DNA of 64,000 nucleotides from Candidatus Omnitrophota bacterium (lineage in GTDB: Bacteria > Omnitrophota > Gorgyraeia > Zapsychrales > Zapsychraceae). Of the stretch, positions 13,176 through 64,000 are shown one piece after another. Location: positions 894,361 to 958,360 of the forward strand of contig JBFWOS010000001.1 of the NCBI GenBank assembly GCA_050250375.1, written 5' to 3'. The translations under genes were made by a program, and so were the position numbers. The notes under the pieces were generated by a model. The model saw only the letters and a list, made by a program, of their open reading frames with translations. It did no database searches and was not told where the DNA came from. How positions within the stretch are numbered: the first letter of the stretch is position 1; each line of letters opens with the position of its first letter.

Positions 13176-13177
13176 TA

Positions 13178-13855: not shown

Positions 13856-13866
13856 GAGGGTTTTCT

Positions 13867-45047: not shown

Positions 45048-46547
45048 TCATTCTGTTAATGGTGTTATCCTTAAAAGATCGTTCTGGACAACAACCTGTT
45101 TAAGACAGCCCAAATGCCAGTCCTCAATCATTCTGCTGCCGACTATTTCCAAACGATAGTTCTTAACCATAAATTTTCGGAAAAGATCTTTTCTGTCCAA
45201 TAATCCGTATTTCGTGACATACACCGGGATACCTTGTCTCAGCAAGTTGTCCAAATCATTTTTAAAAACATCCAGTGTTTCCGGAGTTAATTGAGAATAC
45301 CCTACCGCGGGTCCGAAGGGTTTGCGTTTGGCATAATAATAAATCCAGATTGAATGGTCCCGTTCAATGATGAGCGAATTTTCTTCCGTAGCAACATTAA
45401 CCCATTGAAAAAATTCGGGCAAAAGGGCATTCTGATGACGAAAAAGAAACATCGGATAATACCGGTTCAAATTGATCAATACAAACAATAATATGACCGG
45501 AATACTCAATTTCGCCCACCTATTGTTTGTTTTCAATAAAATGTTTATACAATAAGACTCCATGATGATCAATGGTATAAAACTTATAATCATCAAGCGG
45601 AATACAAAAAAACTGAGAAAACTGAAGATGACGGCCGGAATAATGATCCATAACAACAAAAATAAAATTTTCTTCCGTTCGATTTGAATAATCAAAAACA
45701 CCAACCCTCCTGCCATCAAAACCCACTCTAGCGGAGAAAATACGGTCAGCACATCCGTAAAAATATTGATCAATGCTGTAAATGTCAAACCTTTTATATG
45801 ATTCGTAAAATTAGCCTGTACATAGCCAATGAAAGAACTGTCTCCCGTAGGGAGATTAGGGATCACAAATTTTGGGACGTAAGCAATCAAAATAACACCC
45901 AAACAGGAGAAAAGCGGAACGGTGATATATTTCAACAGGGTCTGTTTGTCCGATCGAATGGAATTCACTTTGGATAGCCCCAAATAAAGCAGAGGGATAC
46001 TCATGACCATTAAATCTTGTATGCGCGCTGCACCCATACACCCCAGCCACAAGCCGGAAAAGAACAAGTGAGACGTACGACGGCTTTCAGGAAACCGCAG
46101 CAGATAATATATTCCTGTTAATAGAAAGAATACAGCCGGCATGTGGCTGTTACCGAAACTGGATAAACCAATAAAGAATGGGTTAAGGGTTAAAAATACC
46201 GCGCTGATCAGAGCCGTCCGGATGTCAGTAAGTTGCTTCACACAAAAAAACATCGCTACGACGCACATTGATCCAAACCATACGCTCATAAAATTAACGG
46301 CAAAGACAGGAGCATTGACGGAAAAAATCTGGAACAACCACACGAAAGACGCCCCGAGAACAACCGTTAACGGAAGTCCCGAACTCTGCAGATAGTGCAT
46401 CTGATGCGTCCTGACGATTTTTTCAGATTGAATAGCCAGATACAGACAATCGGAAGTATAGGGACCAAGGCTGATAAAAAACAATCTGAGCAAAAAACTG
46501 AAAATAAAAAGAATGGCAAGCCACAGCAGAATTTTTTGATTGGCCAT
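45048..46547 (-). CDS. polytopic membrane protein, GT-C/ArnT-PMT-like
   Basis: About 13 TM helices with an N-terminal loop pattern typical of 4-amino-arabinose/mannosyl-transferase-like proteins. It is the third such protein in the window. Confidence 0.55.
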   Translation of the reverse strand: MANQKILLWLAILFIFSFLLRLFFISLGPYTSDCLYLAIQSEKIVRTHQMHYLQSSGLPLTVVLGASFVWLFQIFSVNAPVFAVNFMSVWFGSMCVVAMFFCVKQLTDIRTALISAVFLTLNPFFIGLSSFGNSHMPAVFFLLTGIYYLLRFPESRRTSHLFFSGLWLGCMGAARIQDLMVMSIPLLYLGLSKVNSIRSDKQTLLKYITVPLFSCLGVILIAYVPKFVIPNLPTGDSSFIGYVQANFTNHIKGLTFTALINIFTDVLTVFSPLEWVLMAGGLVFLIIQIERKKILFLLLWIIIPAVIFSFLSFFVFRLMIISFIPLIIMESYCINILLKTNNRWAKLSIPVILLFVLINLNRYYPMFLFRHQNALLPEFFQWVNVATEENSLIIERDHSIWIYYYAKRKPFGPAVGYSQLTPETLDVFKNDLDNLLRQGIPVYVTKYGLLDRKDLFRKFMVKNYRLEIVGSRMIEDWHLGCLKQVVVQNDLLRITPLTE

Positions 46548-46617
46548 AGTTAAAATGTTTTCTTCAGATGGACATGGTGCTCATTAACTATATCTCTCCC
46601 CTTACCGGTCGAAAGGG

Positions 46618-47025
46618 TTACTTGCAATTTTTCCAAATCAAGTGGTCCAGACTGAATCTCCCCGGCCCCAGAAAGATAACGGATCCGGAAACAGCCCAAT
46701 ACGCCAGCGCCAATTCTTTCTTTTTAAACGGATCAGGCCCGTGTTTAATAAACGCGGCCACCGTCATGGTAAAGAAAACCATTAAAGCCGCCGTCCGGGT
46801 GAAAAGCCCCAATACAATAAATATTCCCCCTAAAAATTCAGAAAGCGCCGCGGCCCACGCGAACACTTCCGGCATGGGAAAACCCATCGCCGCAACACCC
46901 TCTGTAAACTGCCCGATTTTTCCGCCGAAAACTTTTCCATAACCGTGATAAGCGATACCGCTCCCCGCCAAAACCCTCAGCCATAATATACCGAAATCCG
47001 TCAATAATTCTTTATTCATTCTCAT
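46618..47025 (-). CDS. DoxX family membrane protein
   Basis: The ILWLRVLAGSGIAYHGYGKVFGG start is characteristic of DoxX. Confidence 0.8.
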   Translation of the reverse strand: MRMNKELLTDFGILWLRVLAGSGIAYHGYGKVFGGKIGQFTEGVAAMGFPMPEVFAWAAALSEFLGGIFIVLGLFTRTAALMVFFTMTVAAFIKHGPDPFKKKELALAYWAVSGSVIFLGPGRFSLDHLIWKNCK

Positions 47026-47045
47026 TTATTCCCCTTAAATTCAAC

Positions 47046-47360
47046 TTACAATTTCAAACCGTATGTATTATTAATATACTGCGTAATACTTTGAGCTGTC
47101 TGAGACGGCATCTTGACTTCTTCAACACAATTAATCTTCCAACCCTGTGCGACCGCGACCGCTTTTCCCAACAATCGGTAATGGAATTCAAACCGGTTCA
47201 TCTCCGTGACCGTGCTCAAGTCTTCGCCGGCGAGCGCAAAATCAAGAATAATCCGGGACAATGACTCCAGGTCAACGACATGATAGCGGTCTTTATTGCT
47301 GAACAGATCTTTGACGGCCTGGGTTATGCTCGCGCGGGTGCTGCTCTCAAATTCGTTCAT
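47046..47360 (-). CDS. hypothetical cytoplasmic protein
   Basis: 104-aa ORF at the distal end of the pilus-like cluster. Confidence 0.4.
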   Translation of the reverse strand: MNEFESSTRASITQAVKDLFSNKDRYHVVDLESLSRIILDFALAGEDLSTVTEMNRFEFHYRLLGKAVAVAQGWKINCVEEVKMPSQTAQSITQYINNTYGLKL

Positions 47361-47493: not shown

Positions 47494-47964
47494 CTAATAC
47501 AAACCGGTTCTCAGTTCGATATGATCCATCCCGTCACTGAGGACAACCACATTTTTCCGGATGGCCATCACAGTATATTCACCGAATGTGTCGTTAACGG
47601 CGACATACCGGTTGTTGATGACGGCGCTGGGATTCTGGTCGTCCCAGAAAATCCCGTTCAAGACCGGATCGGAATCCACGGCTTTATCCTGAGCCAAGGC
47701 GTTATTCGTTTTGAACTCTTCACCGTAATAAAAAGGGTTCCTGCCCCAGCCTTCATCCAATTCCTGCGAAAAGCTCAGAACCGTTACCTTTTTAAGTTGT
47801 TTGGCCAGGACGGTCAATTCGTTTTTCAATAAATCAGCTTCTTTGGTTTCTTTAGTCTTTTTAAAGGGAACCGTGCCCGGGGTATTTGACGCCTTAAACC
47901 ATATCCCCAGCGATATAAATATCAATAGGGGCAGCATTAACTGCAACACTTTATTTTTTTCCAC
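47494..47964 (-). CDS. PilP/GspC-like periplasmic assembly protein
   Basis: N-terminal TM or signal anchor with a small periplasmic beta-rich domain. Position in the cluster supports the call. Confidence 0.45.
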   Translation of the reverse strand: MEKNKVLQLMLPLLIFISLGIWFKASNTPGTVPFKKTKETKEADLLKNELTVLAKQLKKVTVLSFSQELDEGWGRNPFYYGEEFKTNNALAQDKAVDSDPVLNGIFWDDQNPSAVINNRYVAVNDTFGEYTVMAIRKNVVVLSDGMDHIELRTGLY

Positions 47965-48484
47965 GTTTAACGCCTTTGAGATAAATATCCACGTTCAAAC
48001 TGGCCTTGACCGTCGGTTGTATTGTTTCATCTCTGACAATATCAAAACTGCGCACCCGTACGGCCCCCCTTTCCAGATGGTTCAACGCGTCCAGAAATTC
48101 ACCCAGATTAGAATAATCCGACTGTATGTTGAGGTCCAGGGATTGATAAGGAAATTTAACCCGCTTTCTGTCGGTTTTTTCATCAAGACTGATCGTAATG
48201 AATGTTATGCCGTTTTCTTCTCCCAGCCGCATGATTTCATGGATGACCCCGGTGACTTCTTCCTTTGTCACCGGAGCGCCGGCCATTAATTCATTTTTTG
48301 TTTCGTGAAGGACTCCCCTGACCAGGGCCATATCATTTTTAATCCGGAATGTTTCTTGTTCGAGAAGGATAATTTCCTTTTCCTTGGGACGATAGACAAA
48401 GACGAACAATAAAAATAAGGCGCACAGAAAAACGGTCATGGCCGCAACTTTTAATAAACTTTGTTCCCCGTTGAATAATTTCAT
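47951..48484 (-). CDS. PilO/GspM-like inner-membrane assembly protein
   Basis: Single TM segment, coiled coil and periplasmic domain. Size and position are those of PilO or GspM. Confidence 0.55.
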   Translation of the reverse strand: MKLFNGEQSLLKVAAMTVFLCALFLLFVFVYRPKEKEIILLEQETFRIKNDMALVRGVLHETKNELMAGAPVTKEEVTGVIHEIMRLGEENGITFITISLDEKTDRKRVKFPYQSLDLNIQSDYSNLGEFLDALNHLERGAVRVRSFDIVRDETIQPTVKASLNVDIYLKGVKRGKK

Positions 48485-50172
48485 TCTGATTCTCCGGTCG
48501 ACACATCGCAGATGATCTCAAACTGGGCCAAATTGATATCATCCGTGTCTTTCTTCGCTTCAACCAGCCCGACATTCGGGCAAATCCCGTCCTGCAGATT
48601 CCGCATGAACTCAGACAACGCGGCCCCGCTGTCCTGCCCTTCTTCCGGCGTAATATATCCTTTCAGCCTGACCTGATGATCGGCCATACTCATCTGATGC
48701 AAATACATCCGGGGCAAAACCTGATGGCTTAACCCTCTTAAGAATGCTCCCCAGGATGGACGCTGGGCCAGGTGCTTGGAAAAAATCAGTTCTTCCTTGA
48801 ACCTCTTCATTTCCGGAACAAGGCGCTGATAGTCCCTTGTTACGGTCATATGGTTTTTTCTGGATTTATTTAACCGCCATGAAACGTTCACCAGCATAAA
48901 AATGACTAAAGAAAAAACACACAGCACGCTGACCGCCGTGAATATTTTTCCCGGCAGGCCCCCTTGCGTCTGGCGTGCCTTGTTCGGAAGAAAATTGATG
49001 TCATCCGGACCATGCAGGACAGCGCCAATCGCGAGGTCTAACCGGTGCGAAGGGCTTTTTTTAATATCTGACGTGATCCCTGACAGACCGGGCACATTGT
49101 CGACGATTTCCTCTACACGGATGTCAACATCCAGCTCCTGGGATAAATGCTGTTCAAGGCCTTTCATCCGGGCCAGTCCGCCCCGCAGGATTACTTTATG
49201 GATTCGTTCTCCCCGCTCCCCCTGATAAAATTCGAGCGAGCGGTCAATTTCATTCACCAGCAATTCAAGTTTAGGCCGCATCATGGATAACAGCTGGTTC
49301 GGCGTAATTCTCTCTTCGGCCCAGGAAACCTGGCCGACCTCGGGGATGCCATATTTAATTTTCATCTGTTCGGCTTCCCCAAACGTCAACTCCACCTTGC
49401 CCTTGGGGGTAACCAGGGCTTTGGTCAGACTGAGCGTGATATCGTTTCCGCAGAAAGGAAGCTTGCGGGAAAATTCAATCTTTCCATTTTTATAAACGTT
49501 AAACTCCGTGATCGTCCGTTCCATTTCAATAACGGCAAAAATTCCGGCGGAGGCACCGACGGAATTCATAAATATATTTTCCAGGGCTAATGAAGAAGGA
49601 ATAACCGCTGTCAACCGGCAGTCCGCCAAATAACCGCGATGACCGTCAGAGGAATTAAAAAAGGCGTTAATCAGGTTAATATTTTCCCGGGTGGTCGTGG
49701 CCGCTAATACATTGAGCTTGAGGTGTTCTCCATCCATACTCTTATCCAGGACTTTATAATCCATCACGGCTTCATCAAGAGAAAACGGAAACTGGTTCTT
49801 GGCCCCCCAACGGACCGCCTGGGCCAGTTCTTCTTCCGGCATGACCGGCAGGCGAATCTTGGCCACGGATGTCCTCGGGCAATTGACCACACAGATCACA
49901 TCCGCATTTTTCTCCGTGACGCCTTTAAAAACTTCTTTCAGTCCTTTTATGACATTGACTTTATAATCGATCTTTTCGATGTCCGTCATCTCTGCGCACG
50001 CGCTATAAACCAAATGCAGATTGTCTTTTTCTGAAACAAACTGGACCAGCTTGATTGAACCGGATCCGATGCTGACACCGATCAATGACCGGTTCTTTTT
50101 ATTTATAAATTTTCTCTTTTCCATCTCTTTAACCTTGTAACTCTTTCCAGGAGCCGCCCACCGAACTGACAA
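48481..50172 (-). CDS. PilM-PilN fusion (GspL-like) assembly protein
   Basis: N-terminal actin-like PilM domain (IGVSIGSGSIKLV), a mid-protein TM helix (IFTAVSVLCVFSLVIFMLV) and a PilN-like periplasmic tail. Confidence 0.7.
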   Translation of the reverse strand: MSVRWAAPGKSYKVKEMEKRKFINKKNRSLIGVSIGSGSIKLVQFVSEKDNLHLVYSACAEMTDIEKIDYKVNVIKGLKEVFKGVTEKNADVICVVNCPRTSVAKIRLPVMPEEELAQAVRWGAKNQFPFSLDEAVMDYKVLDKSMDGEHLKLNVLAATTTRENINLINAFFNSSDGHRGYLADCRLTAVIPSSLALENIFMNSVGASAGIFAVIEMERTITEFNVYKNGKIEFSRKLPFCGNDITLSLTKALVTPKGKVELTFGEAEQMKIKYGIPEVGQVSWAEERITPNQLLSMMRPKLELLVNEIDRSLEFYQGERGERIHKVILRGGLARMKGLEQHLSQELDVDIRVEEIVDNVPGLSGITSDIKKSPSHRLDLAIGAVLHGPDDINFLPNKARQTQGGLPGKIFTAVSVLCVFSLVIFMLVNVSWRLNKSRKNHMTVTRDYQRLVPEMKRFKEELIFSKHLAQRPSWGAFLRGLSHQVLPRMYLHQMSMADHQVRLKGYITPEEGQDSGAALSEFMRNLQDGICPNVGLVEAKKDTDDINLAQFEIICDVSTGESE

Positions 50173-50602
50173 TATTAGGCGGTCCCGCCGTCAGCGAAAC
50201 TTCCTGCTGAATTTCTCTTTCGGAATTATGGCTTACTCCTCTGGCCGTGATCAGAATATTTGCCCCTGAAGTTTCAACCCAGACCGTGTACCGGCCGTCT
50301 CCCAGTGTTTCTTCTTGAGGATCGTTCGAACCGGGCCCGGGATCAGCCGGATAAGCCGACGTCCGCCAGCTCCCGTCCGTCGAACCGTCGGGGGCCGTTG
50401 TTTGCAGGTACCAGACCGCCTTATTCAGCCCGGCCTCGGCAAAATAAAATGCCCTGACCGTATCTGTCTGGGCATCCAGCAATTTTGTATTGCTCATCAC
50501 CAGGCTTATATAAGCCGAAGCGACCACCGTCAGAAAAACCATAAAAATCAGCGTCAGCAGCATGGTTGCCGCCCGCTTGCGTGATAGTCTGTATAATTTC
50601 AT
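50129..50602 (-). CDS. PilX/GspK-like minor pilin
   Basis: Hydrophobic N-terminal helix followed by the AEAGL motif of PilX_N. Confidence 0.55.
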   Translation of the reverse strand: MKLYRLSRKRAATMLLTLIFMVFLTVVASAYISLVMSNTKLLDAQTDTVRAFYFAEAGLNKAVWYLQTTAPDGSTDGSWRTSAYPADPGPGSNDPQEETLGDGRYTVWVETSGANILITARGVSHNSEREIQQEVSLTAGPPNIVSSVGGSWKELQG

Positions 50603-51117
50603 TATAAATTTCTCGGCCTCACATTAGTCCGCATTCTTACCGTTGAGTCATTCCGGCTTAAGGTCCAATCCAAAGTAATTAAATTATTGTTCCGGTCAAA
50701 AGGAAAATTAACCGGAGATATTAAATTTCTGACAAGGACTTTTCCGGCCCCGTAACTGAGATCTCCCTCGGCAAACTTAATCTGATAATTGTCTTCTGAA
50801 TAAGGTGGATTTGGTTCAGGGTCGTCCGGGCTGTACAGATAAACCCTGAAATTCACATCGCCGCTTCCCATGTCCGCGGTAAAGGAAAGGCTGCTTTCTG
50901 AAATATCATCAATGCTCTTTGCCTGGACAAGATAACGCGTAACCTGATCAATCGCCTGGGCCGCGTCTGTCCTGTTTGAAATCCGGTCGTAACCGTTTTC
51001 AAAGATACTTGTTCCGGTCGTATAAATCAAACCGATCGTAAAAATCAGAACCCCGGTAACCAGGACGCTCATGATCAGCTCGGTAATCGTAAATCCATGC
51101 TGGGTCGATATCCTCAT
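50602..51117 (-). CDS. minor (pseudo)pilin with class III signal peptide
   Basis: MRISTQHG|FTITELIMSVLV, a prepilin cleavage and methylation motif. Confidence 0.75.
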   Translation of the reverse strand: MRISTQHGFTITELIMSVLVTGVLIFTIGLIYTTGTSIFENGYDRISNRTDAAQAIDQVTRYLVQAKSIDDISESSLSFTADMGSGDVNFRVYLYSPDDPEPNPPYSEDNYQIKFAEGDLSYGAGKVLVRNLISPVNFPFDRNNNLITLDWTLSRNDSTVRMRTNVRPRNL

Positions 51118-51138
51118 AACTTTCCTCGCCGGGGCTAT

Positions 51139-51522
51139 TTAATAATCATAATCCGCCAACAACGTGACCAGTTCTACATTATGATCGACCCCTTTATCTG
51201 TCCAGTACACCTTCACATTAACCTGCTTGGGATCACCGGCAACGGTCACTTCCCGGTCAAAATCGCTAAAATCGCCCCCTACATTGGTCCGGGCCGCAGA
51301 CATTGAATCAATATCCGCATATGATCCCGCATCCTTGATTTCCTCCATCGCTTCCTGACCTAAACTGATGGCTATCGCCGTATATTCATTGTCTGAATCC
51401 AGCGTCGTTGTCATGCTGAACAGACTGAACACGGCGGTCACTCCGGTTGCCAACAGAACCATCGTGATCATCGCCTCCAGGAGGGTGAAACCTTTTCGGT
51501 CACTACGACTCAATCTGTTCAT
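51139..51522 (-). CDS. minor (pseudo)pilin
   Basis: Internal start MNRLSRSDRKG|FTLLEAMITMVLL, a prepilin motif. The ORF track extends to 51579. Confidence 0.7.
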   Translation of the reverse strand: MNRLSRSDRKGFTLLEAMITMVLLATGVTAVFSLFSMTTTLDSDNEYTAIAISLGQEAMEEIKDAGSYADIDSMSAARTNVGGDFSDFDREVTVAGDPKQVNVKVYWTDKGVDHNVELVTLLADYDY

Positions 51523-51544
51523 CGGATCAAAACACTTTCCTGTC

Positions 51545-51994
51545 TTACCATCCCAATCCATTGGTGACAAAAGGATCATCGGCCTGATCCCCTAATAGCT
51601 GGCCCGTTTCGTCTTCGATACCCGTGATGTCATAGACCCGGTTGACCCCGGCGCTGAATATGACATAAAATTGTTCGTCATCCGACAAAATGTAGTTGTA
51701 CTCCTGCTGCGGTAAAAACGGATCATAAAGGATTTCGTTAACGATCTTCGGAGTCGCGTCCAGAAGCTGGTCCGCGATGACTGAATCCGAAGTGTTCGGG
51801 TACTCTTTGGGAACCTGGTTCACATAAAAAGATTCAATCGCGGCCTGGACTGTCCTGAGTTCCATCTGGGCCTTTGAAACATTGGCCTGGTCCTGCATCC
51901 CCTTAAACCTTGGAATCGCAATCCCGATTAAAATGGAAATGACAACCATGACCACCATAAGTTCAATCAGCGTAAAACCTTTTTTGTTCTTCAT
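51545..51994 (-). CDS. major pilin / GspG-like pseudopilin
   Basis: MKNKKG|FTLIELMVVMVVISILIGIAIP, the canonical type IV pilin N-terminus. Confidence 0.8.
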   Translation of the reverse strand: MKNKKGFTLIELMVVMVVISILIGIAIPRFKGMQDQANVSKAQMELRTVQAAIESFYVNQVPKEYPNTSDSVIADQLLDATPKIVNEILYDPFLPQQEYNYILSDDEQFYVIFSAGVNRVYDITGIEDETGQLLGDQADDPFVTNGLGW

Positions 51995-52024
51995 ACTTCC
52001 CCCCGGATTTTGTTAATAAACATT

Positions 52025-53239
52025 TTATCTTTGTATCGTCTTGACCATATCAAACAAGGGCAGCAACATTGATGCCATAATAAAACCGGCAAGGCCGCCC
52101 ATAATAATGATGAGAACCGGCTCTATCAGCGTCAGCAGCCGCCGGATCGAATGTTCAATCGATTTATCGTAAAAATCAGCGATCTTGTCCAGCATGTCAT
52201 GCAGCCGGCCGGTCTGTTCTCCGACGGCGATCATCTGGGTGACATCCGGCGGGAACCGTCCGCTTTTAACCAACGGTTCTGTGACCGTGGCCCCTTCTTC
52301 TACACTTTTGCGGGTGTCGTTCACCACTTTGGCCATGACGACATTCCCGATGGTGTCCCGCGTGATGCTGAGCGCATAAAGCATTGAAACCCCGCTTTTC
52401 AAAAGCGTGGCCAGCGTACGGCAAAAGCGGGCGATCACCGTCTTGTAAATAAGATCACCGATGACGGGAATTCTAAGCTTGAGATCGTCAAATTGCGCTC
52501 TTCCTTGTTTCGTTTCGATATAAAATTTGACCAGCCCGACAACAAAAGAGACCACCAAAATCAAAAGAAACCAATACTTCCGAATTCCCACCCCGAGAGA
52601 ATGCAGGATGAGTGTGGGTAAAGGTATAGTTACATCAGCCCTTGTGAATATTTCCATAAACTTTGGTATTACAAAACTTATGATAATTATTATGACCGCA
52701 ATGCTGACAAAAAGCAATATGGACGGATAAAATATTGCATTCTTTATTTTTTGCCGGATGTCCTCTTCGTGTTCGATATAAATCGCGTAACGATTGAGGG
52801 TCGGGCTTAATGTCCCGCTGACCTCGCCGCTTTTAACCATATTAATGAACAGAGCGGAAAAAACCCGCGGAAACTTCGCCATGGATTCCGATAAAGAGGT
52901 CCCCGACGCAATCAATTCACTGACATCATGGATTACTTTCTTGAAACCGGTATTTTTAATCTGCCGGTTCAACGTCTTCAGGCTGGTCAATATCGGCACT
53001 CCCGCTTCCAGCATATTCGCCAGCTGGATGCTGAAAAATATCATCTCCAGGGTTTTGACCTTTTTTACAACCCCGCCGGGATTGACGGCACCGTTTCCAT
53101 TCTCGGCCTCCTGAATAAACGTCGGGACATATCCCATGGTGTGTAATCGTTTGGCCAGGGCATCCTGCGTAGGGGCTTCCATCGTTCCCCGGATCAGGTT
53201 TCCGTTATCTTCTCTCGCTTTATAAAGGTATGTGGGCAT
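52025..53239 (-). CDS. GspF/PilC platform protein
   Basis: Two T2SSF-type repeats and three TM helices. Confidence 0.9.
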   Translation of the reverse strand: MPTYLYKAREDNGNLIRGTMEAPTQDALAKRLHTMGYVPTFIQEAENGNGAVNPGGVVKKVKTLEMIFFSIQLANMLEAGVPILTSLKTLNRQIKNTGFKKVIHDVSELIASGTSLSESMAKFPRVFSALFINMVKSGEVSGTLSPTLNRYAIYIEHEEDIRQKIKNAIFYPSILLFVSIAVIIIIISFVIPKFMEIFTRADVTIPLPTLILHSLGVGIRKYWFLLILVVSFVVGLVKFYIETKQGRAQFDDLKLRIPVIGDLIYKTVIARFCRTLATLLKSGVSMLYALSITRDTIGNVVMAKVVNDTRKSVEEGATVTEPLVKSGRFPPDVTQMIAVGEQTGRLHDMLDKIADFYDKSIEHSIRRLLTLIEPVLIIIMGGLAGFIMASMLLPLFDMVKTIQR

Positions 53240-53242
53240 GTC

Positions 53243-54859
53243 TTATGCTTCCTCTTGCGTAACCCGCAAAATTTCTTCTCGGGTCGTGATTCCCTGGTCG
53301 ACTTTTTTCATCCCGTCTTCACGCAGCGTAATCATCCCGGAATTAACCGCTTCCTGATTTATATCTTCCGATGAGGCCTTCTTGATGATTAACTGACGCA
53401 ACGGATCAGTAACGCGCATCAGCTCATAAATGCCTGTCCTGGTTTTATAACCGGATTGATGACATTTGGGACATCCCTTTCCGGAACAATCCTGACAAAT
53501 CCGGCGGACCAGCCGCTGGGCGAGCACGCCCGTCAGCGATGATGAAATCAAAAAAGGCTCAATGCCCATATCGATCAACCGGGCAACGGCCCCGGCCGCG
53601 TTATTGGTATGCAGGGTGGCCAAAACCAGATGTCCGGTCAGCGCCGCCTGCACGGCAATCTCGGCCGTTTCCAGATCCCTAATTTCCCCGACCATGATGA
53701 TGTCCGGATCCTGCCTGAGGATAGAACGCAGGCCGGTGGCGAATGTCAGGTCAACGCTCGGGTTGATCTGGATCTGACGGATTCCCTTTAATCTATATTC
53801 GACCGGGTCTTCAATGGTGACAATATTTTTCTCCGGGGTATTGATCTCGTTCAATGAGGCGTACAAAGTCGTCGTTTTACCGCTTCCCGTCGGACCGGTG
53901 ACCAGGATAATCCCGTTTGGCTGGTACAATAATTTAATATATTTTTCGAGAACCTCTTTCTGAAATCCGGTCTCTTTTAAATGTAAAAGCATGCTCCCCT
54001 GATCGAGAAGACGCATCACGATATTTTCCCCGTAAATGGTCGGCATGCAGGAAACACGGATATCAATCTGACGGCGCCCTATCTGTAACTGGAAACGGCC
54101 GTCCTGGGGTTTACGCCTCTCGGCAATATTCATATTAGACAAAATTTTTATGCGGGAAATAATCGCCGACTGCAGGTGCCGGGGAAAATCACTCTGTTCA
54201 CTTAAAACACCGTCGACCCGATAACGGACTTTCAGGGCGTCTTCATCCGGCTCAATATGGATATCCGACACCCCTTCGGAAACAGCCTGCATAATGGTCA
54301 TGTTGACCAGTTTAATCACCGGCGGTTCTTCACCGATATTTTTAAGCTGGTCCGCTTCCAAGTCGTCCTCTCTGAACAAGGGCTTTTGCTCTTCCAGACT
54401 CCGGATGACTTCCTGCATCGTGCCTTTCACCGTATAATGTTCATCAATCGCCTTTTGAATCTCTTTCTCCGTCGCGATGGCCTGTTCCACCGTCAGCCCG
54501 GTCCTGAGCATGACCTCATCAAGGGCCAATAGATTAAAAACATCCGCCATCACGCAGGTCAGCGTACTGCCGATTTTTAAAACCGGGATGATCTGGTGTT
54601 TCCGGGCCAGATCTTCCGGGACGAGTTCGATCAGTTTCGGATCGATCAAGTGGCTGTTAAGATCAATCCGCGGAATGCTCATTTGTTCCGCCAGAAAATT
54701 CACCATATCCTCTTCTGACACAAACCCCGTCTTGATCAGCGATTTACGGACCGATTCACCGGACTTCACGGCACTCTGGACCTTCATCCATTGATCATCC
54801 GTGATGATGTTATGCTCCAGGAGCATTTCCCCGAGCGATTTTTTAATTTTTCTGGACAC
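53243..54859 (-). CDS. GspE/PilB/MshE-type assembly ATPase with an MshEN-like N-terminal domain
   Basis: Walker A GPTGSGKTTTL and the tetracysteine motif CQDCSGKGCPKC. The N-terminal 150 aa carries two LGxxLxxxG(I/V)(I/V)...Q-like motifs (SLGEMLLEHNIITDDQ; SLIKTGFVSEED). Confidence 0.9.
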   Translation of the reverse strand: MSRKIKKSLGEMLLEHNIITDDQWMKVQSAVKSGESVRKSLIKTGFVSEEDMVNFLAEQMSIPRIDLNSHLIDPKLIELVPEDLARKHQIIPVLKIGSTLTCVMADVFNLLALDEVMLRTGLTVEQAIATEKEIQKAIDEHYTVKGTMQEVIRSLEEQKPLFREDDLEADQLKNIGEEPPVIKLVNMTIMQAVSEGVSDIHIEPDEDALKVRYRVDGVLSEQSDFPRHLQSAIISRIKILSNMNIAERRKPQDGRFQLQIGRRQIDIRVSCMPTIYGENIVMRLLDQGSMLLHLKETGFQKEVLEKYIKLLYQPNGIILVTGPTGSGKTTTLYASLNEINTPEKNIVTIEDPVEYRLKGIRQIQINPSVDLTFATGLRSILRQDPDIIMVGEIRDLETAEIAVQAALTGHLVLATLHTNNAAGAVARLIDMGIEPFLISSSLTGVLAQRLVRRICQDCSGKGCPKCHQSGYKTRTGIYELMRVTDPLRQLIIKKASSEDINQEAVNSGMITLREDGMKKVDQGITTREEILRVTQEEA

Positions 54860-54874: not shown

Positions 54875-55249
54875 TCAATTCTTTACGGTTAACCCTTTGA
54901 TTTTTTCCAACAGATCTTCAAAATCGATGAGCTTGTTCACGTAATCATCAAATCCCACTTCCCTGGCCATGGTTGTATCGATCTCGTCCTGTGAACGGGC
55001 CGTAAACATGACAATGGGAATTTTCTGAAACCGGCTGTCCGCCTTCAGCAGGGCGCACACCTTGAACCCGTTCATCTTCGGCATCATCTCATCCATGATA
55101 ATAATATCGGGAACCACTTCTTTCGCTTTGGTCAATCCTTCCTGCCCGTCGAAAGCAAGGGACACATCAAATCCGGCCTTCTGAAACCTGATGGCCAGCG
55201 TCTCGGAAATATCGCTCTCATCATCGACAATCAAAATTTTTTGGGGCAT
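54875..55249 (-). CDS. single-domain response regulator (CheY-like)
   Basis: ILIVDDE...IIIMDEMMPKMNG...FTAR...NK receiver motifs. Confidence 0.85.
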   Translation of the reverse strand: MPQKILIVDDESDISETLAIRFQKAGFDVSLAFDGQEGLTKAKEVVPDIIIMDEMMPKMNGFKVCALLKADSRFQKIPIVMFTARSQDEIDTTMAREVGFDDYVNKLIDFEDLLEKIKGLTVKN

Positions 55250-55271: not shown

Positions 55272-56105
55272 TCATTGTCCGTCCGGCTTCCCGGAATTAT
55301 TATTTTGCCGGTCTTTATTTTTATCTTTCTCCCGTTTCAACAACATGGTCACTTCTTCCAGCAATAACTTTGGGTCATTGGCGTTGATATATCCGTCCGC
55401 CTGGGTTTTATTTTGTATCTTCTCAAAAATGGGAATATTTTCGGCCTCTCCGTTTGGAAAATATAAGAAAAACTTTACAAACTTCAACCGCGGCATTTTC
55501 TTTAACTTAAGGATGACTTCATCCCCGCCCAAATCAGGCAGGGTCATCTTGACAACAACGGCATCGGGTAAGTTGGTCATCACCTTTTCAATGGCCTTCC
55601 CTCCGTTCGGCGCCAATGAAACAATGTGTCCGTCGTTCAGGAAAGCCATGCTGATCTGGCCCCCGGACAACGGATCGTCTTCAACTATCAATATATTGTG
55701 CGGGGGTATCGTTTCTTTCTTAAACTCATCAAAATCTTTGTTCGTAATGACCTTGATTTCCCTCAACAACTCGTCAAATTCATATGGTTTGTTCATAAAT
55801 CCGTCAACGTATAGCTGCCGGAATAACCCTTCCATATTCGCCCTGGCCGTCAGGACTAAAATCGGATATTTTGGTTTGTCATTGGCCTCCAAGATCTTTT
55901 CGTAAAATTCGATCCCGCCCATGACCGGCATGTTAATATCCAAGATGATCAAATCGGGGATAAAATGCTCCAATTTTTCTAATCCTTCCAGCCCGTTACA
56001 AGCCGTCTCCACGCTGTATCCGGCTTTCCTGATTCTGTAAGCCGCCATCTCGGTCAGATCGGCCTCATCATCAATGATTAATATTTTCTTTTGGGGGTCA
56101 CTCAT
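55272..56105 (-). CDS. tandem REC - degenerate REC protein
   Basis: The first REC is canonical (ILIIDDE...LIILDINMP...LTAR...NKP). In the second the phospho-acceptor Asp is replaced (VVVKMTLPD). Confidence 0.75.
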   Translation of the reverse strand: MSDPQKKILIIDDEADLTEMAAYRIRKAGYSVETACNGLEGLEKLEHFIPDLIILDINMPVMGGIEFYEKILEANDKPKYPILVLTARANMEGLFRQLYVDGFMNKPYEFDELLREIKVITNKDFDEFKKETIPPHNILIVEDDPLSGGQISMAFLNDGHIVSLAPNGGKAIEKVMTNLPDAVVVKMTLPDLGGDEVILKLKKMPRLKFVKFFLYFPNGEAENIPIFEKIQNKTQADGYINANDPKLLLEEVTMLLKREKDKNKDRQNNNSGKPDGQ

Positions 56106-56126
56106 TGTTCATTACTCCCTGGACAA

Positions 56127-56516
56127 TTAAATCTGAAATAATTTTTCCGTCGCCGATTTCACTCTTTTCAACAAATCTTCCAGTTCAAAAGGTTTGGTAA
56201 TATATCCTTCAATGCTCAGTCCGCTTAAGACATTATCCAGGTAAGCCCTGGCCGTCAGAATCAGCACTGGAAATTTTGGTTTTTTGTTTTCATCCAGGAT
56301 ATGCTGATAAAATTCCAGGCCGCCCATGACCGGCATATTCAAATCCAGAATGATCAGGTGCGGCGTAAATGTCTGCAGTTTATCCAAACCCTCCTGGCCG
56401 TTTGAGGCCAGTTCAACCTTGAAGCCTTTGGCCTTAAGCTGGTACGCCGTCATTTCCGCCAAATCAATCTCATCGTCAATGAGCAAAATATTGATTTCTT
56501 TATCATTTTGTGTCAT
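56127..56516 (-). CDS. single-domain response regulator (CheY-like)
   Basis: Start at an internal ATG (MTQNDKEINILLIDDE). It shares a 14-nt overlap with the upstream hybrid kinase and is paralogous to REC1 of 55272-56105. Confidence 0.8.
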   Translation of the reverse strand: MTQNDKEINILLIDDEIDLAEMTAYQLKAKGFKVELASNGQEGLDKLQTFTPHLIILDLNMPVMGGLEFYQHILDENKKPKFPVLILTARAYLDNVLSGLSIEGYITKPFELEDLLKRVKSATEKLFQI

Positions 56517-57681
56517 GCGTAGTTCCCCCATTGCTGCCTGAGATCGGCACCCAAAAACAGAACCGGCTGCCCTTGGTGATTTCCGACTCAACCCAGATCT
56601 TTCCTTTATGCTGGTGGATGATCTCTTTGCAGATGGCCAGTCCCAGGCCCGTTCCGCCCTTCTCGCATTTCGCGGCATCTTCCAGCTGCTGGAATTTTTC
56701 AAAAAGTTTGGGGATATCCGATTTCTCAATACCCGGTCCTGTGTCTTCAACAATGACTTCCAGTTTATGGTCATGATTAACCGCCCGGATGACAATCCCT
56801 CCTGTTTTTGTAAACTTGATGGCGTTGTTCACGAGATTATTTAAGACCTGGCTGATACGGTCTGTATCAAAAACCGCTTCCGGCACATTCGGGTCTATCT
56901 CTGACTTCAAGAATAAATTTTCTTTCTGGGCGGCGGGGCTGTTCACCTGAATGACTTCCTGGACCAATTTATTCACGTCGTTTGGCTGCGGTTTCATTTC
57001 AATCCGGCCTGATTCCAGTTTGGACAGGTCGAGGATATCATTGATCAGCCGCTTTAACCGGTCAACATTGACTTTGGCTTTGTTTAAAAAATTATTCTGG
57101 TCCGCGCTTAAGGTCCCGGACGTTTCGCTCATGACGATATCAATCGCGGCCTTGATGGAGGCCAAGGGTGTACGCAGCTCATGCGAAACAACGGAAGTGA
57201 ATTCACGCTGTTTCTCAAACATGGCGGATAACTTCATGTTTAACCCTTCGAGCTCTTTATTCTTTTTCTCGGTGATTTCAATCAGGTCTTTATTTTCGAT
57301 CATCAAATTATAATGATTGATCGCTTCCTGGACAGATGTCTTGAGGTCAGGACCGTTCCAGGGCTTGTTGATAAAACGATAGACTTCCCCGATATTGATC
57401 GCGTCCTCGGCCGCCTGAAGATCGGTGTATCCGGTAAATAAGATGCGCATAATGTCCGGATTTTTCGCTTTGACCTTCGTCAAAAACTCGACACCGGTTA
57501 TATGCGGCATCCGCTGGTCGCTGATCACGACTTTGATTTTTTCCCGGCCAATGATATCCAGGGCTTCCTCAGCGTTTGTTGTCACGACGACCCCGTAAGA
57601 TTCGCTGATAAAAAGCCGTTTCAGCGAATTCAATATGTTTTCTTCATCATCCAGAAACAAGACATTTATTTCTTTACTCAT
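56503..57681 (-). CDS. REC-HisKA-HATPase hybrid (response-regulator histidine kinase), paralogue 1
   Basis: N-terminal REC (VLFLDDE...VVISDQRMP...FTGY), H-box VSHELRTPLASIKAA, and a G-box/HATPase_c region. Confidence 0.85.
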   Translation of the reverse strand: MSKEINVLFLDDEENILNSLKRLFISESYGVVVTTNAEEALDIIGREKIKVVISDQRMPHITGVEFLTKVKAKNPDIMRILFTGYTDLQAAEDAINIGEVYRFINKPWNGPDLKTSVQEAINHYNLMIENKDLIEITEKKNKELEGLNMKLSAMFEKQREFTSVVSHELRTPLASIKAAIDIVMSETSGTLSADQNNFLNKAKVNVDRLKRLINDILDLSKLESGRIEMKPQPNDVNKLVQEVIQVNSPAAQKENLFLKSEIDPNVPEAVFDTDRISQVLNNLVNNAIKFTKTGGIVIRAVNHDHKLEVIVEDTGPGIEKSDIPKLFEKFQQLEDAAKCEKGGTGLGLAICKEIIHQHKGKIWVESEITKGSRFCFWVPISGSNGGTTHDTK

Positions 57682-58861
57682 GATTTTCTACCCCGTTTTT
57701 CGGACGATTGCCTTTCAGCGGCAGTGTAAAATAAAAATGGCTCCATTCATTTAAGGAGGATTCAGCCCAAATGCTTCCCCCGTGAAGCCGGATAATGTCA
57801 CGGCAGATGGCCAGACCGATCCCGGCTCCCCCCGCCATTCTTTTTTCAGGACTGCCGATTTGATGGAATTTATTAAACACTTTGCTCAAATCAGTTTCCG
57901 GGATCCCGACGCCTGTATCCTTGACACACACCTGCACCTCATCCTTGTCCTGGATGATCCGGCTGGTAATCAGAACCCCGCCTTTTTCCGTGAACACAAT
58001 CGCGTTGTCAATCAGGTTGCTCATCACCGTCTTGATGCGCTCCCCATCCATGGATATCAACGGAATCCCCTCTTGGAGATCAGCGTTAATGGACAATTTT
58101 TTATTGGCAGCTTCAGGCATAAACCACTTTAACTCTTGTTTGATGATATCGTTGATATCATTGGGTTTAATATCCAGATCCAGCGTTCCCGATTCAAGCG
58201 AGTTCATATCAAGCACGTCATCACTCAAACTTTTAAGACGATCAATATTTTTCTGGGCTGTATGAACAAAGACTTTCTGATCTTTATTCAGCGGACCGGG
58301 GGCTTCACTCGCCAATATTTCGACAGCACTTTTGATGGAAGCCAGGGGGGTGCGCAATTCATGCGATACCGTAGAAATAAATTCCTGCTGAATCTTTTGC
58401 AATGCCCTCAATTCCCGGTTAATTGCCTCCAGTTCCTGCGATTTTCGGCGCATATCTTCAAAAAGCCGTTCATTCTCTTCACACAAATTATAATGCTGGA
58501 GCGACTGCCGGATGGCCGCCTTGAATTCGGCCGTGTTAAACGGTTTGGTTAAAAAGCGGTATACCTCACCCATATTGATCGCCTGTTCCGCGATTTCAAA
58601 TTCTTCGTGCCCGGTCAGCAGGATCCTGACAATATTCGGGAACCTGTTTTTTACTTCTCTTAAAAAATGAATGCCGGGTATGACCGGCATAAACTGGTCG
58701 CTGACAACCACCTTGATCTTTTCTTTTCTCAAAATTTCAAAGGCCTCTTCCGTTGATTTGGTCGTGATAACCCCGAACGGCCAGTCTAAAAATATTTTCT
58801 CAAACAGATAAAGGTCGCTGTCTTCGTCATCGATAAATAGAATATTAATTTCTTTGGACAC
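57674..58861 (-). CDS. REC-HisKA-HATPase hybrid, paralogue 2
   Basis: Same architecture (ILFIDDE...VVVSDQFMP; VSHELRTPLASIKSA; GGAGIGLAICR). Confidence 0.85.
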   Translation of the reverse strand: MSKEINILFIDDEDSDLYLFEKIFLDWPFGVITTKSTEEAFEILRKEKIKVVVSDQFMPVIPGIHFLREVKNRFPNIVRILLTGHEEFEIAEQAINMGEVYRFLTKPFNTAEFKAAIRQSLQHYNLCEENERLFEDMRRKSQELEAINRELRALQKIQQEFISTVSHELRTPLASIKSAVEILASEAPGPLNKDQKVFVHTAQKNIDRLKSLSDDVLDMNSLESGTLDLDIKPNDINDIIKQELKWFMPEAANKKLSINADLQEGIPLISMDGERIKTVMSNLIDNAIVFTEKGGVLITSRIIQDKDEVQVCVKDTGVGIPETDLSKVFNKFHQIGSPEKRMAGGAGIGLAICRDIIRLHGGSIWAESSLNEWSHFYFTLPLKGNRPKNGVENHE

Positions 58862-58893
58862 CTTAGAACTCCATCCCTACCGTCTTGCCGGTT

Positions 58894-59961
58894 TTAATTA
58901 TCCTTATGATTGATGGGCAACATGATGATAAATGTTGTCCCTTTACCCAGCACGGACTCCACACTGATTTCTCCGCCGTGTTTTTTAATAATATCGTAAC
59001 TGATGCTCAGGCCTAAACCTGTGCCTTGCCCAACCGGTTTGGTGGTAAAAAACGGGTCGAACATCTTCTTTAAATTCTCTTCGGCAATGCCGACCCCGGT
59101 ATCGCTGATCTCGGCATAAATATATTCATCTTTTCTATAAACCTTGACGAATATTTCACCTTTTTCTTTGATGGCCTGCGCGGCATTGACCAGCAAGTTT
59201 AAGAAGACCTGCTGAAGCCGTTGTTTCCTCCCTTTTATTAAAGGCAGATCCGGATCAAATTCTTTATTCAGGCCCGCTTTGTATTTGATTTCATTAAACG
59301 CCAGCCGGATCGTCTCTTCAATGATCGCTTTCAGGTCAACATCTTCCAGGCCTTCTTCATCCGCTTTGGAAAACACCCTCAAATCCGCAACGATATTTTT
59401 AACGCGCCTGACCCCGTCTTTGGTTTCTTTAAACAAATTTGTGATATCACTGAGGATATAATCGATTTCCGCTGTTTCCTGGGCGTTCAGTATTTTTTCT
59501 ATAGCCGGCCCGATTAAATCCGTTTGCGTTTTTACTTTCTTTTCCTTTAATTCCTGGACTGCGTGAATCACGGTCAGAAATTGCTTAACGTAACCTTCCA
59601 GGACTTCAATATTGCTTTCAATAAACCCGACCGGGTTATTGATTTCATGGGCCACCCCGGCGGCCAATTGACCGATCGAGGCCATTTTCTCCGATTGAAA
59701 CAACTGCATTTTCATATTCTTGAGGTCATTGTGAGTCTTTTGAAGATCCTGCAGCATTGTTTTCATCTTCTGGTTCGATTCGAATAATTCTTTGGAACTA
59801 AGCTCAATCGAATGTTCCAGTAATTCACGGTCACTGTCAAACGAACAATACGCATCACTGACGGCATCAATAAACCCTTTCCATTCATCTGAGAGCTGGA
59901 TATCAGCACCGTGATACTTCTTCAACTGCCGTCTAACTAACGTGTGTAACTCTTTCGCCAT
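58894..59961 (-). CDS. cytoplasmic orphan histidine kinase (HisKA + HATPase_c, unknown N-terminal domain)
   Basis: H-box [16 protein letters not shown] and HATPase_c. No TM segment. Start at an internal ATG so that it overlaps the FIST gene stop by 1 nt (TGATG). Confidence 0.8.
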
Positions 59962-61106
59962 CAAACTTTCTCCGAGAATGTTGTAATGGTCATCGTCTGG
60001 TTGTGGAGCTGGCATTCCTTAAAATCTGCTCCGAACGGGGCGATTTCCCCGTAAGAATAAAATCCGGTTAAGATGCTCTGGCCCCCGACAACATCCCGGA
60101 CCCCTTCGACTTCCTCTTCAGTCCTTTGCTTGAGGATCAGTTTTCGTCCGACACAGCTGATCAGGATCGAAAGTTCCGCATTCATTGAATCCAGCGGAAC
60201 CAGGCTGTTCTTGGCCGCTCCGACCGCTCCGTCAACCAACCGGTTAAAATTCGCTTTCATCAACCGGACCGTACTATTTTCCGGAATGTCCCCGGCGAAT
60301 GTCATACTCTGTTCTTTCTCATCCACCGCCAAGATGGTGCGGACCACTTCTTTTTCACCGCTTTTTGTCGACAGGCTCAACGGAAACAATAAACCGGTTG
60401 CCGGCAATCCCTTGGCATGTTCACCCAAATATTGTTTGTAGAGATTTAAAGCCAGCTGGCCGTCCAGTTCATATAATTTATTACACCTTGATTTTGTCAC
60501 GACCCGTTCAGGACCAAAAGAATCCCATCCTCCAAGAGAACCGTACCCCACCTTGATGTTATTTCCATAAAATCCGACCGCGACCGCCCCTTCTTTATAT
60601 ACTTCTCCATCAGAAATAATGAACGTTTCTTTAAACCGGGCGGCATCTCCTGACAAGCCTCCCGAGACGGATATTTTCCCCAGCAGTTTATGGTTAAAGC
60701 CCCGCACCAGTTCACTGCCGTTCACGTTAATCCCCTCAGAGAGGACAAAAATATGCTTAAGATCATCCGCGTTTAATTGCTGCGCCAGGTTCCCGCCGGC
60801 CTCATAACTGTTATTAATATTGGTTATCTGCTGATGGACACACTTAATCTTTGTTTTCTCAAAATGAACAGCCGTCAGGACCAATGAATCATCATGAACC
60901 TGGGTGCCGTAAATCTCACCGGCCGTTGAACACCCAATCCAACTGGCGTTGGGATATATTTTCTTTATTTCTTGAAACTGTTGTTTCTCTTTTATAAGGG
61001 CCGTGCTGCCGAATAAGATAACTAGTTCAACACCGGAGCCGTCCGGGCTGGATAACGCGGGAGACCAACCTTTTTCTTTCGTCCAGATTCTTTGTTCTAT
61101 TTTCAT
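59961..61106 (-). CDS. FIST-domain sensor protein
   Basis: FIST_N signature WIGCSTAGEI and FIST_C FYSYGEIAP, in a protein of about 380 aa. Confidence 0.75.
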   Translation of the reverse strand: MKIEQRIWTKEKGWSPALSSPDGSGVELVILFGSTALIKEKQQFQEIKKIYPNASWIGCSTAGEIYGTQVHDDSLVLTAVHFEKTKIKCVHQQITNINNSYEAGGNLAQQLNADDLKHIFVLSEGINVNGSELVRGFNHKLLGKISVSGGLSGDAARFKETFIISDGEVYKEGAVAVGFYGNNIKVGYGSLGGWDSFGPERVVTKSRCNKLYELDGQLALNLYKQYLGEHAKGLPATGLLFPLSLSTKSGEKEVVRTILAVDEKEQSMTFAGDIPENSTVRLMKANFNRLVDGAVGAAKNSLVPLDSMNAELSILISCVGRKLILKQRTEEEVEGVRDVVGGQSILTGFYSYGEIAPFGADFKECQLHNQTMTITTFSEKV

Positions 61107-61138
61107 GATCGCACCCCTTTAATAAATGTAAGCCGCCA

Positions 61139-61723
61139 TTATCGGCCTGTCTTCTGGGTCAGCAGCTGGTTAATTTTTTGTAATAAAGCTTCATTGGTAA
61201 ACGGCTTTTGCAGAAAATCATCCGCCCCCATCTTCAAAATCTTTTTAATTCTTTCTTCATCCTGGATACCGGATATGATCAAAATCCTGACGTCTTTGTT
61301 TTCCTTGTCATTGCGGATCGCCTGGCAGAGGCTGTCCCCGTCAACCCGCGGCATCCTTAAATCCAGAATGAGCAGGTCCGGTTTTTTCTGGATAAATTTC
61401 TGGCCGGCCATAAATCCGTCATACGCCACATCGACTTCAAATTGGGGGTCTGGCAACAACAGCCTTTTAATCAGATTAACGATCCCCTGTTCATCGTCCA
61501 CAATCAAAATATGCTTTTTGGAGTCTTTCGGCATTAAATCAGATGGAATAGGCATTTGAAATTTATTCAGAAAATGAATAAGTTCGGACTGTTTAACCCG
61601 GCTGTGGTTCCCCGGGGTGCGAAAAGCGGTGATCTTCCCTTCATTAATCCATTGGTTAACGGTACGCGGCGTGACATCACAATACTTGGCAATTTCGTGG
61701 GTTGTAAATGCTTTTTCAATCAT
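61139..61723 (-). CDS. excisionase/MerR-type HTH - REC response regulator, reversed domain order
   Basis: N-terminal HTH_17-like FTTHEIAKYCDVTPRTVNQWINEGKI, then REC (ILIVDDE...LLILDLRMP...ISG...QKP). Confidence 0.8.
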   Translation of the reverse strand: MIEKAFTTHEIAKYCDVTPRTVNQWINEGKITAFRTPGNHSRVKQSELIHFLNKFQMPIPSDLMPKDSKKHILIVDDEQGIVNLIKRLLLPDPQFEVDVAYDGFMAGQKFIQKKPDLLILDLRMPRVDGDSLCQAIRNDKENKDVRILIISGIQDEERIKKILKMGADDFLQKPFTNEALLQKINQLLTQKTGR

Positions 61724-63097: not shown

Positions 63098-63125
63098 AAT
63101 GGTTTAATTCAAGTTTACCACCCGG

Positions 63126-64000
<875 letters not shown>

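Follow-up and report, generated by a model that had tools for sequence, protein, structure and literature searches.

A type IV pilus-like gene cluster of Omnitrophota with a PilM-PilN fusion, a GspG-like major pilin and no secretin gene at the locus

Omnitrophota are uncultured, mostly ultra-small bacteria that are suspected predators or parasites, and type IV pili have been proposed to serve them for host attachment. The closest described systems are the type IVa pilus (T4aP) of Myxococcus xanthus, Geobacter and Pseudomonas and the type II secretion system (T2SS; Gsp/Pul/Out/Eps). Scattering of type IV pilus genes over the genome is normal: in Pseudomonas, pilBCD, pilMNOPQ and pilTU lie at separate loci. 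Here we analyse a pilus-like cluster in a 64,000-nucleotide stretch of an Omnitrophota genome (assembly GCA_050250375.1, contig JBFWOS010000001.1, positions 894,361 to 958,360; hereafter the window, within which positions are counted). On the minus strand, the core cluster occupies 54859-47494 and consists of genes for PilB, PilC, four pilins, a fusion of PilM with PilN, PilO and a 156-amino-acid (aa) protein. We consider it probable that these genes serve a functional, envelope-spanning type IV filament machine whose secretin, prepilin peptidase (PilD) and possibly retraction ATPase (PilT) are encoded elsewhere in the genome, including the case in which the secretin is shared with another system.

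According to Seymour et al. (2023, PMC10066038), T4aP gene sets are common in every class of Omnitrophota and V. archaeovorus expresses pili; T2SS-like loci have been reported beside giant genes (West-Roberts et al. 2023 preprint, 10.1101/2023.11.21.568195). These surveys record presence or absence and adjacency to F-type ATPases or giant genes, neither of which adjoins the cluster in the window. The PilM-PilN fusion, the PilP-like protein and the variable secretin position are not described in them; what is new here is the fusion architecture, the recognition of a PilP/GspC-like family and the variable position of the secretin gene. Another pilus-like cluster of the PVC superphylum, Amuc_1098-1102 of Akkermansia muciniphila, also contains a long PilM-like protein, and the window fusion scores 80 bits against the Amuc_1101 family, which with a cut-off of 650 indicates a relation at the superfamily level only.

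Gene content compared with pilus and secretion systems

Ten closely packed or overlapping genes run along the minus strand from 55249 to 47494:

54875-55249, minus strand: CheY-like single-domain response regulator, 124 aa (Pfam Response_reg), 15 bp upstream of pilB
53243-54859, minus strand: PilB/GspE-type assembly ATPase, 538 aa (T2SSE 1.4e-138, MshEN 4.8e-19)
52025-53239, minus strand: PilC/GspF inner-membrane platform, 404 aa (T2SSF 1.5e-62, two repeats)
51545-51994, minus strand: major pilin, 149 aa (N_methyl 6.8e-11, T2SSG 9e-4)
51139-51522, minus strand: minor pilin, 127 aa, motif RKG/FTLLE (N_methyl 1.9e-7, PilV 5.7e-7)
50602-51117, minus strand: minor pilin, 171 aa, motif QHG/FTITE (N_methyl weak, 0.018; motif from sequence)
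50129-50602, minus strand: PilX/GspK-like minor pilin, 157 aa (PilX_N faint in the window, weak in orthologues)
48481-50124, minus strand: PilM-PilN fusion, 547 aa (PilM_2 3.2e-28, PilN 1.2e-3)
47951-48484, minus strand: PilO, 177 aa (Pfam PilO 9.9e-8, above cut-off)
47494-47964, minus strand: PilP/GspC-like protein, 156 aa (family-profile and fold evidence)

All the genes named in the original prediction are present at their positions on the minus strand, their identities being supported by Pfam and NCBIfam except in the case of the 156-aa protein. For the minor pilin at 51139-51522, a 146-aa open reading frame (ORF) is over-extended and we adopted the 127-aa start of the gene callers. Promoter and terminator scans gave signal at background level.

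The cluster shares with the T4aP a PilB-type ATPase with an MshEN-like domain, a PilC platform, PilM, PilN, PilO and a PilP-like protein with a homology region (HR) domain in canonical order, and short-leader G/FTLIE pilins (the slash marks the cleavage site) with a minor-pilin set that includes a PilX-like protein. It departs from the T4aP in that PilM and PilN are fused, the GspG-like major pilin has no disulfide loop, the PilP-like protein carries a transmembrane helix instead of a lipoprotein anchor, the PilB equivalog cut-off is missed, and PilQ, PilT and PilD are not in the locus. With the T2SS it has in common GspE-, GspF- and GspG-like proteins, a GspL-like joining of PilM and PilN in one polypeptide, a PilO/GspM-like partner, the HR fold of GspC and GspB, and an operon devoid of a retraction ATPase. 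Unlike a T2SS operon, it has no gspD; its HR protein has neither PDZ domain nor coiled coil; GspH, GspI, GspJ and GspK are not recognisable, E. coli GspL, GspM and GspC find no match, the N-terminus of the ATPase is PilB-like, and the GspE, GspF and GspG scores fall under the equivalog cut-offs. Judged by sequence, the ATPase and the alignment complex of the machine are closest to those of the T4aP, and its major pilin is T2SS-like.

The ATPase, whose N-terminal domain is of the MshEN type and which contains a CxxC...CxxC zinc motif, was placed by its family-model and PDB scores. It misses both NCBIfam equivalog cut-offs, with 615 bits against GspE (cut-off 630) and 604 bits against PilB (cut-off 676). 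Its best PDB matches are the T4aP PilB proteins of Geobacter and Myxococcus (~510 bits, residues 8-459), whereas GspE structures reach ~425-428 bits and align only from residue 109-171 to 459. We assign the protein, on these comparisons, to PilB at the family level and not at the equivalog level. Binding of cyclic di-GMP by its N-terminus was considered and is not claimed, because the MshE-type motif model scores 32.9 against a cut-off of 38 and other residues occupy the key Arg and Gly positions. The platform protein scores 371 bits against GspF (cut-off 424) and 352 bits against PilC in NCBIfam.

The major pilin consists of the leader MKNKKG/FTLIE and a GspG-like globular part with zero cysteines; it reaches 55 bits against the NCBIfam GspG model (cut-off 89) and matches E. 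coli GspG at 5e-10, and its orthologues in two related loci (L007 and L008; loci of other contigs are designated by L and a number) match T2SSG. Canonical G/F..xE cleavage motifs, as in class III signal peptides, are present in three pilins (KKG/FTLIE, RKG/FTLLE and QHG/FTITE), and the position of the QHG/FTITE minor pilin is kept in all orthologous clusters. The 157-aa PilX-like protein has a hydrophobic N-terminus and lacks the G/F..E motif. Against GspH, GspI, GspJ and GspK the minor pilins give weak N-terminal matches, their best families being PilV and PilX_N.

The gene at the PilX position is larger in relatives, encoding 286 aa in L007 and 360-398 aa in L006, L008 and L011; the 157-aa protein of the window is a minimal version. 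Adhesin-like modules are part of the larger proteins, namely a discoidin F5/8 type C domain for L007 and, for L008, a beta-helix that is bactofilin-like. These enlarged versions point to modular tip pilins in Omnitrophota. The gene tables of the relatives place them as follows:

L007, 14731-15591, strand not given: enlarged PilX-position gene
L008, 14256-15452, strand not given: enlarged PilX-position gene
L006, 14599-15681, strand not given: enlarged PilX-position gene

Far from the cluster, at 6894-7322 and 7330-7764 (both minus strand), lie genes for two paralogous proteins of 142 and 144 aa with 43% identity. Both carry a hydrophobic helix at the N-terminus, many cysteines at the C-terminus and, resembling GspG, the stretch 'L..A.E.Y...NG.YP' (E. 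coli GspG, E 0.034); in this pair (6894-7764) there is no G/F..E cleavage motif and no Pfam match. In L014 and L015, the gene immediately before that of the secretin encodes a protein weakly similar to them (E 5e-4). From these sequence features the pair may be non-canonical pilin-like proteins.

In the fusion protein, an actin-like PilM part is followed by the peptide 'INFLP', then by a transmembrane helix and finally by a PilN domain in the periplasm. This 'INLLP'-type peptide is the hallmark of the PilN N-terminus. In NCBIfam the fusion matches pilM (2.7e-31) and the Amuc_1101 family (NF045709, 2.2e-22), and it is present in all orthologues. It has only four close homologues, whose loci match the gene order of the window throughout, with the kinase block and the downstream 104-aa and GT-C genes included; a broad PilMN alignment contained no stretch conserved enough to serve for a genome scan. 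The earlier label 'GspL-like' is an analogy of topology only; the PilN motif is kept and E. coli GspL finds no match.

Several of these features would suit type II secretion of folded proteins, such as hydrolases or giant surface proteins, by means of a short pseudopilus. The GspE model scores slightly above PilB (615 versus 604 bits), the major pilin matches GspG best, the fusion mimics GspL topology, the HR protein resembles GspC and GspB, no PilT lies nearby, and T2SS-like loci do occur beside giant genes in the phylum (10.1101/2023.11.21.568195). However, the ATPase aligns through its N-terminus with T4aP PilB and not with GspE, none of the T2SS equivalog cut-offs is reached, searches with E. 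coli GspL, GspM and GspC find no match, the fusion keeps its 'INLLP'-type PilN motif, the HR protein is without PDZ, and signatures of GspK, GspI and GspJ are not seen; moreover, the adhesin-like modules (discoidin) at the PilX position of relatives fit a surface pilus. We regard a T2SS as unlikely; these modules and the published view of Omnitrophota pili favour a surface pilus, and a function in adhesion or motility may be more likely than protein secretion.

The 156-aa protein and its predicted docking domain

The last gene of the cluster encodes a 156-aa protein that has a transmembrane helix at its N-terminus and a six-stranded HR domain at its C-terminus (residues ~100-155), and that carries the motif 'WGRNPF'. 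The window protein itself has no Pfam match. It belongs to a family of at least 570 representative clusters at E <= 1e-3 among 1.84 billion proteins, mostly 140-160 aa long, with the conserved motifs 'WGRxPF' and 'L.GI.WD..P.AIIN...V..GD.IG...V..I..D.VIL.DG'. Among 150 family members, Pfam matches are to T2SSB (48), CdsD_C (36), T2SSC (29) and Y4YQ_C (18).

As a PilP reference we used proteins encoded directly upstream of secretins in canonical pilMNOPQ operons, three of which pass the Pfam PilP cut-off. In hhalign, the 150-member profile aligned with Pfam-verified PilP at a probability of 91% (E 1.1e-6) over the C-terminal 61 columns; the full set of 150 sequences was required, with 11 sequences alone giving a weak result (P 0.007), and comparison with single E. 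coli GspC or GspB sequences was uninformative. AlphaFold2, supplied with the family alignment, predicted the HR domain as six strands with a predicted local distance difference test (pLDDT) score of ~97, compared with a pLDDT of 40 from the single sequence. The two top Foldseek matches among PDB entries were the HR domain of Dickeya GspB (4wfw, root-mean-square deviation 1.5 A over 57 columns) and that of enterotoxigenic E. coli GspC in complex with GspD N0-N1 (3oss_C, TM 0.72); the HR domain of PulC was also among the matches.

The same region is under the strongest constraint in the cluster. The last 56 residues are 98% identical between the window and L004 at a dS of ~1, which corresponds to a ratio of non-synonymous to synonymous substitution rates (dN/dS) of ~0.008, the lowest in the cluster, whereas the whole protein has a dN/dS of 0.19. 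In related loci, the homologue is encoded directly upstream of the secretin (L016, L023) or 1-3 kb upstream of it (L014, L015). A PDZ domain is absent from the window HR protein.

Because profile, family Pfam, fold and constraint evidence agree, the 156-aa protein is best understood, from sequence and model, as a PilP/GspC-type connector, and the original call 'PilP-like' is borne out by hhalign, the family Pfam matches and AlphaFold/Foldseek. HR domains bind the secretin N0 domain in PilP-PilQ, GspC-GspD and GspB-GspD complexes. To our knowledge, this is the only role known for an HR domain of the PilP/GspC type. By analogy, the HR domain of the window protein would dock onto the N0 domain of a secretin.

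Secretin genes in related clusters and the missing partners

The original prediction had reported no secretin, PilT or PilD in 64 kb, and the absence extends to about 10 kb past each end. In Pfam scans covering every large or membrane ORF of the window, no secretin, PilT or Peptidase_A24 appeared. Hidden Markov models (HMMs) built from 120 Omnitrophota secretins and from 120 PilB homologues, run against the window's six-frame ORFs of >= 60 aa, returned one PilB-like ORF, no secretin and nothing PilT-like. E. coli K-12 GspD and GspO, used as phmmer --max queries against ORFs of >= 40 aa in the window and both flanks, found nothing at E <= 1, while as a positive control the same queries recover secretins and peptidases at loci of other phyla. 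The flanks consist of ~9 kb of the window's own contig past its right end (L012) and 10 kb past its left end, the latter on L121, a 111-kb Logan contig from another sample that carries the window's identical first gene; the gene tables of both are without secretin, PilT or peptidase and list two-component and housekeeping genes only. As had been predicted, a diderm envelope is supported, here by the detection of MlaA (1e-58), MlaC, MlaD, MlaE and MlaF sequences.

Nearly all of the 120 best PilB homologues come from Omnitrophota, with 58-67% identity outside the window's own family. The order response regulator-PilB-PilC-four pilins-PilMN-PilO-HR protein was found in at least 11 lineages, and nearly all related loci have at least one single-domain response regulator gene just upstream of PilB (96% identical in L004), with a GAF histidine kinase between the regulators and PilB in L008. 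Where the secretin gene lies differs from lineage to lineage. In L006 (GCA_029261055.1) and L011 (Ca. Zapsychrus exili), orthologous clusters whose PilB is 60-67% identical to that of the window, a small MerR gene and a gene for a 561-565-aa secretin lie immediately upstream of the response regulator and PilB; in the more distant L014 and L015 the secretin gene is just downstream of that for the small HR protein; and in L016 the order is PilMN-small protein-secretin-PilT-like. None of the related clusters is adjoined by a prepilin peptidase or PilT gene.

Since three pilins carry canonical cleavage motifs and yet no peptidase is encoded near the related clusters, partners in trans are already required for such machines. 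We infer that the secretin, too, acts in trans in the source genome, because close orthologues carry a secretin at the locus and the docking domain is strongly constrained. The original prediction had listed a secretin encoded elsewhere among its options; this option is now favoured by the adjacent secretins of relatives and the conserved HR domain. The unusualness implied at the time was overstated, because PilD and PilT adjoin none of the related clusters and in seven of 11 lineages there is no secretin nearby.

Could the missing genes simply mark a decaying remnant that has lost its secretin and its function? The local absence of secretin, PilD and PilT is all that would suggest it. The ten window genes are intact, packed and syntenic, with synteny kept in genomes down to 63% identity, and all cluster genes are under purifying selection (dN/dS 0.03-0.22, dS 0.5-2.2), so the selection analysis leaves next to no room for this explanation.

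Several observations weigh against a functional machine with its secretin in trans. Neither a secretin nor PilD or PilT of the source genome was found in a search covering the window and flanks (~84 kb). The secretin of L006 has 2044 homologues at E <= 1e-10, and among the 120 best of these every named one is from Omnitrophota and none is traceable to GCA_050181705.1, the assembly that carries the window PilB on its 868-kb contig JBFXCX010000003.1. In seven of the 11 lineages (the window family, L007, L008, L041, L042, L045 and L049) a secretin is absent from the available flanks, that upstream of L049 being too short to judge. Some lineages could thus be secretin-independent, or their HR domain could have another partner. 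As for the connector, phmmer and profile searches of PDB sequences with the 156-aa protein returned no PilP or GspC, and the Foldseek E-values for its HR domain are weak (0.09-0.18) in spite of top ranks and probabilities, as is expected because the domain has only 55 residues.

A rival reading is a machine that does without a secretin, either as a periplasmic endopilus or piston of the kind put forward for some T2SS-like pseudopili, or as a filament with a different way across the outer membrane. No secretin within ~84 kb, seven of 11 related lineages without an adjacent one and a GspG-like, i.e. pseudopilin-like, major pilin would all be compatible with it. Against this stand the HR domain, kept under very strong constraint, and the orthologous clusters with PilB 60-67% identical that do carry a secretin; gene scattering is the norm for such systems, and we found no evidence of an alternative conduit. 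Secretin independence is, in our estimate, improbable, and for the periplasmic endopilus and the non-canonical function put forward by the original prediction we found no positive support. It would be just as much of a long shot to suppose that in this Omnitrophota lineage the PilMN-type machine has no secretin of its own, and maybe none at all, working as a periplasmic endopilus or with the HR domain on another outer-membrane conduit or, in a milder form, with a secretin time-shared with a second, paralogous pilus system.

A special case of the preferred reading, in which a secretin in trans completes the filament machine, is that this secretin is shared with a second, paralogous pilus-like system of the same genome. 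Omnitrophota have a second recurring cluster ('type 2', as opposed to the type 1 of the window) with the order (MerR)-(ParA-like)-PilM-PilN-PilO-secretin-PilC-pilins-PilB:

L009, 6050-15435, strand not given: type-2 cluster
L123, 2245-11543, strand not given: type-2 cluster
L125, 4990-14892, strand not given: type-2 cluster

PilO of these clusters has ~300 aa and PilB 567-602 aa. In L009, a 1714-aa DUF2341 protein follows the cluster. The secretins adjacent to type-1 clusters (L006 and L011) are 62-66% identical to the type-2 secretins of L009 and L123/L124, and 50% identical to those of L125/L126; the secretin-bearing type-2 cluster of L009 directly adjoins a PilMN-type cluster that has none; and one and the same conserved small gene, MerR-like, stands before the secretin gene of L006 and L011 and before the type-2 cluster of L009. 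All three observations are in line with sharing. On the other side, no type-2 cluster was seen in the window or flanks of the source genome, the type-2 PilO has an HR-like C-terminus of its own (as observed in L009), so that the type-2 secretin is already partnered, and secretin sharing is unproven in any Omnitrophota. We hold this special case to be possible, if doubtful.

The MerR-like protein of 81-89 aa is highly conserved ('VSKATVNYYTNIGLI...KKNKRLY...GYTLRLIQREF') and its gene always precedes a secretin gene or a secretin-containing cluster:

L006, 7662-7907, strand not given: MerR-like gene, conserved motif
L011, 5738-5983, strand not given: MerR-like gene, conserved motif
L009, 6050-6319, strand not given: MerR-like gene, conserved motif

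The type-2 cluster of L125, too, has a MerR_1 gene in front of it. The MerR-like protein is a candidate for a dedicated regulator of secretin expression. An HTH-receiver protein of the window (61139-61723) was considered as a fused counterpart and rejected, its similarity being that of generic HTH domains (25-30%).

In the machine that we propose, the cluster would provide the inner-membrane and periplasmic half of a T4aP-like apparatus with a GspG-like major pilin. The PilB ATPase would polymerise the major pilin on the PilC platform, and a complex of the two minor pilins and the PilX-like protein would prime and cap the filament. The PilM-PilN fusion and PilO would form the alignment ring, which the 156-aa PilP-like protein would couple to the outer-membrane secretin by contact between its own C-terminal HR domain and the secretin's N0 domain. 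Secretin, prepilin peptidase and any retraction ATPase would be supplied from elsewhere in the genome, and the adjacent CheY-like regulator and kinase block would control the machine.

Neighbouring genes and significance

On either side, the cluster has the kinds of neighbour that the original prediction had described, with regulators upstream, here response regulators and histidine kinases, and DoxX and a GT-C membrane protein, here of the PMT_2 family, downstream:

55272-63097, minus strand: upstream two-component block (Pfam, RR being a response regulator receiver and HK a histidine kinase: RR-RR, RR, two RR-HK hybrids, HK, FIST protein, HTH-RR, RR-HK)
45048-47360, minus strand: downstream genes for a 104-aa protein, DoxX and a GT-C (PMT_2) membrane glycosyltransferase (PMT_2 3e-10)

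The unusually dense two-component block extends over 55272-63989 (minus strand) and into L012. Three RR-HisKA-HATPase hybrids of 385-395 aa that are near-paralogues of one another are encoded there, along with two kinases lacking a receiver, a FIST-domain protein, a fusion of HTH_17 with a receiver, and proteins with a double or a single receiver. L002 and L004 share the gene order of the block, other Omnitrophota having different HK and RR sets at this place, and its products are probably regulators outside the core machine. Downstream, the 104-aa and GT-C genes are kept only in L002 and L004, with DoxX absent in L002, and the 104-aa/DoxX/GT-C set does not adjoin the cluster in other Omnitrophota; a link of these genes with the pilus is uncertain.

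The downstream GT-C gene (PMT_2/TMEM260-like; 45048-46547, minus strand) is kept in two family relatives, and in L015 a gene for a 655-aa GT-C protein (13069-15060) lies inside the cluster, between the pilin genes and the secretin gene. TfpW of Pseudomonas is a GT-C enzyme of pilin O-glycosylation, and by analogy the cluster-linked GT-C proteins may O-glycosylate pilins. Near the start of the window, HMG-CoA reductase (mevalonate pathway), PPK2 and DNA photolyase are encoded at 3649-4920, 4972-5796 and 2222-3601, respectively, all on the minus strand; to the left of the window, on the syntenic L121, follow PPK1, Ppx and a second Ppx/HD-domain gene, forming a polyphosphate neighbourhood.

A pilus cluster that locally has no secretin, peptidase or retraction ATPase is normal, and no concept is overturned by the one described here. 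What the locus offers is a phylum-wide template for one Omnitrophota pilus machine, with a PilM-PilN fusion, a GspG-like pilin and a PilP/GspC-like family. That the secretin gene comes and goes at the locus is useful to know for annotation and for genome-mining rules that demand co-localised secretins.

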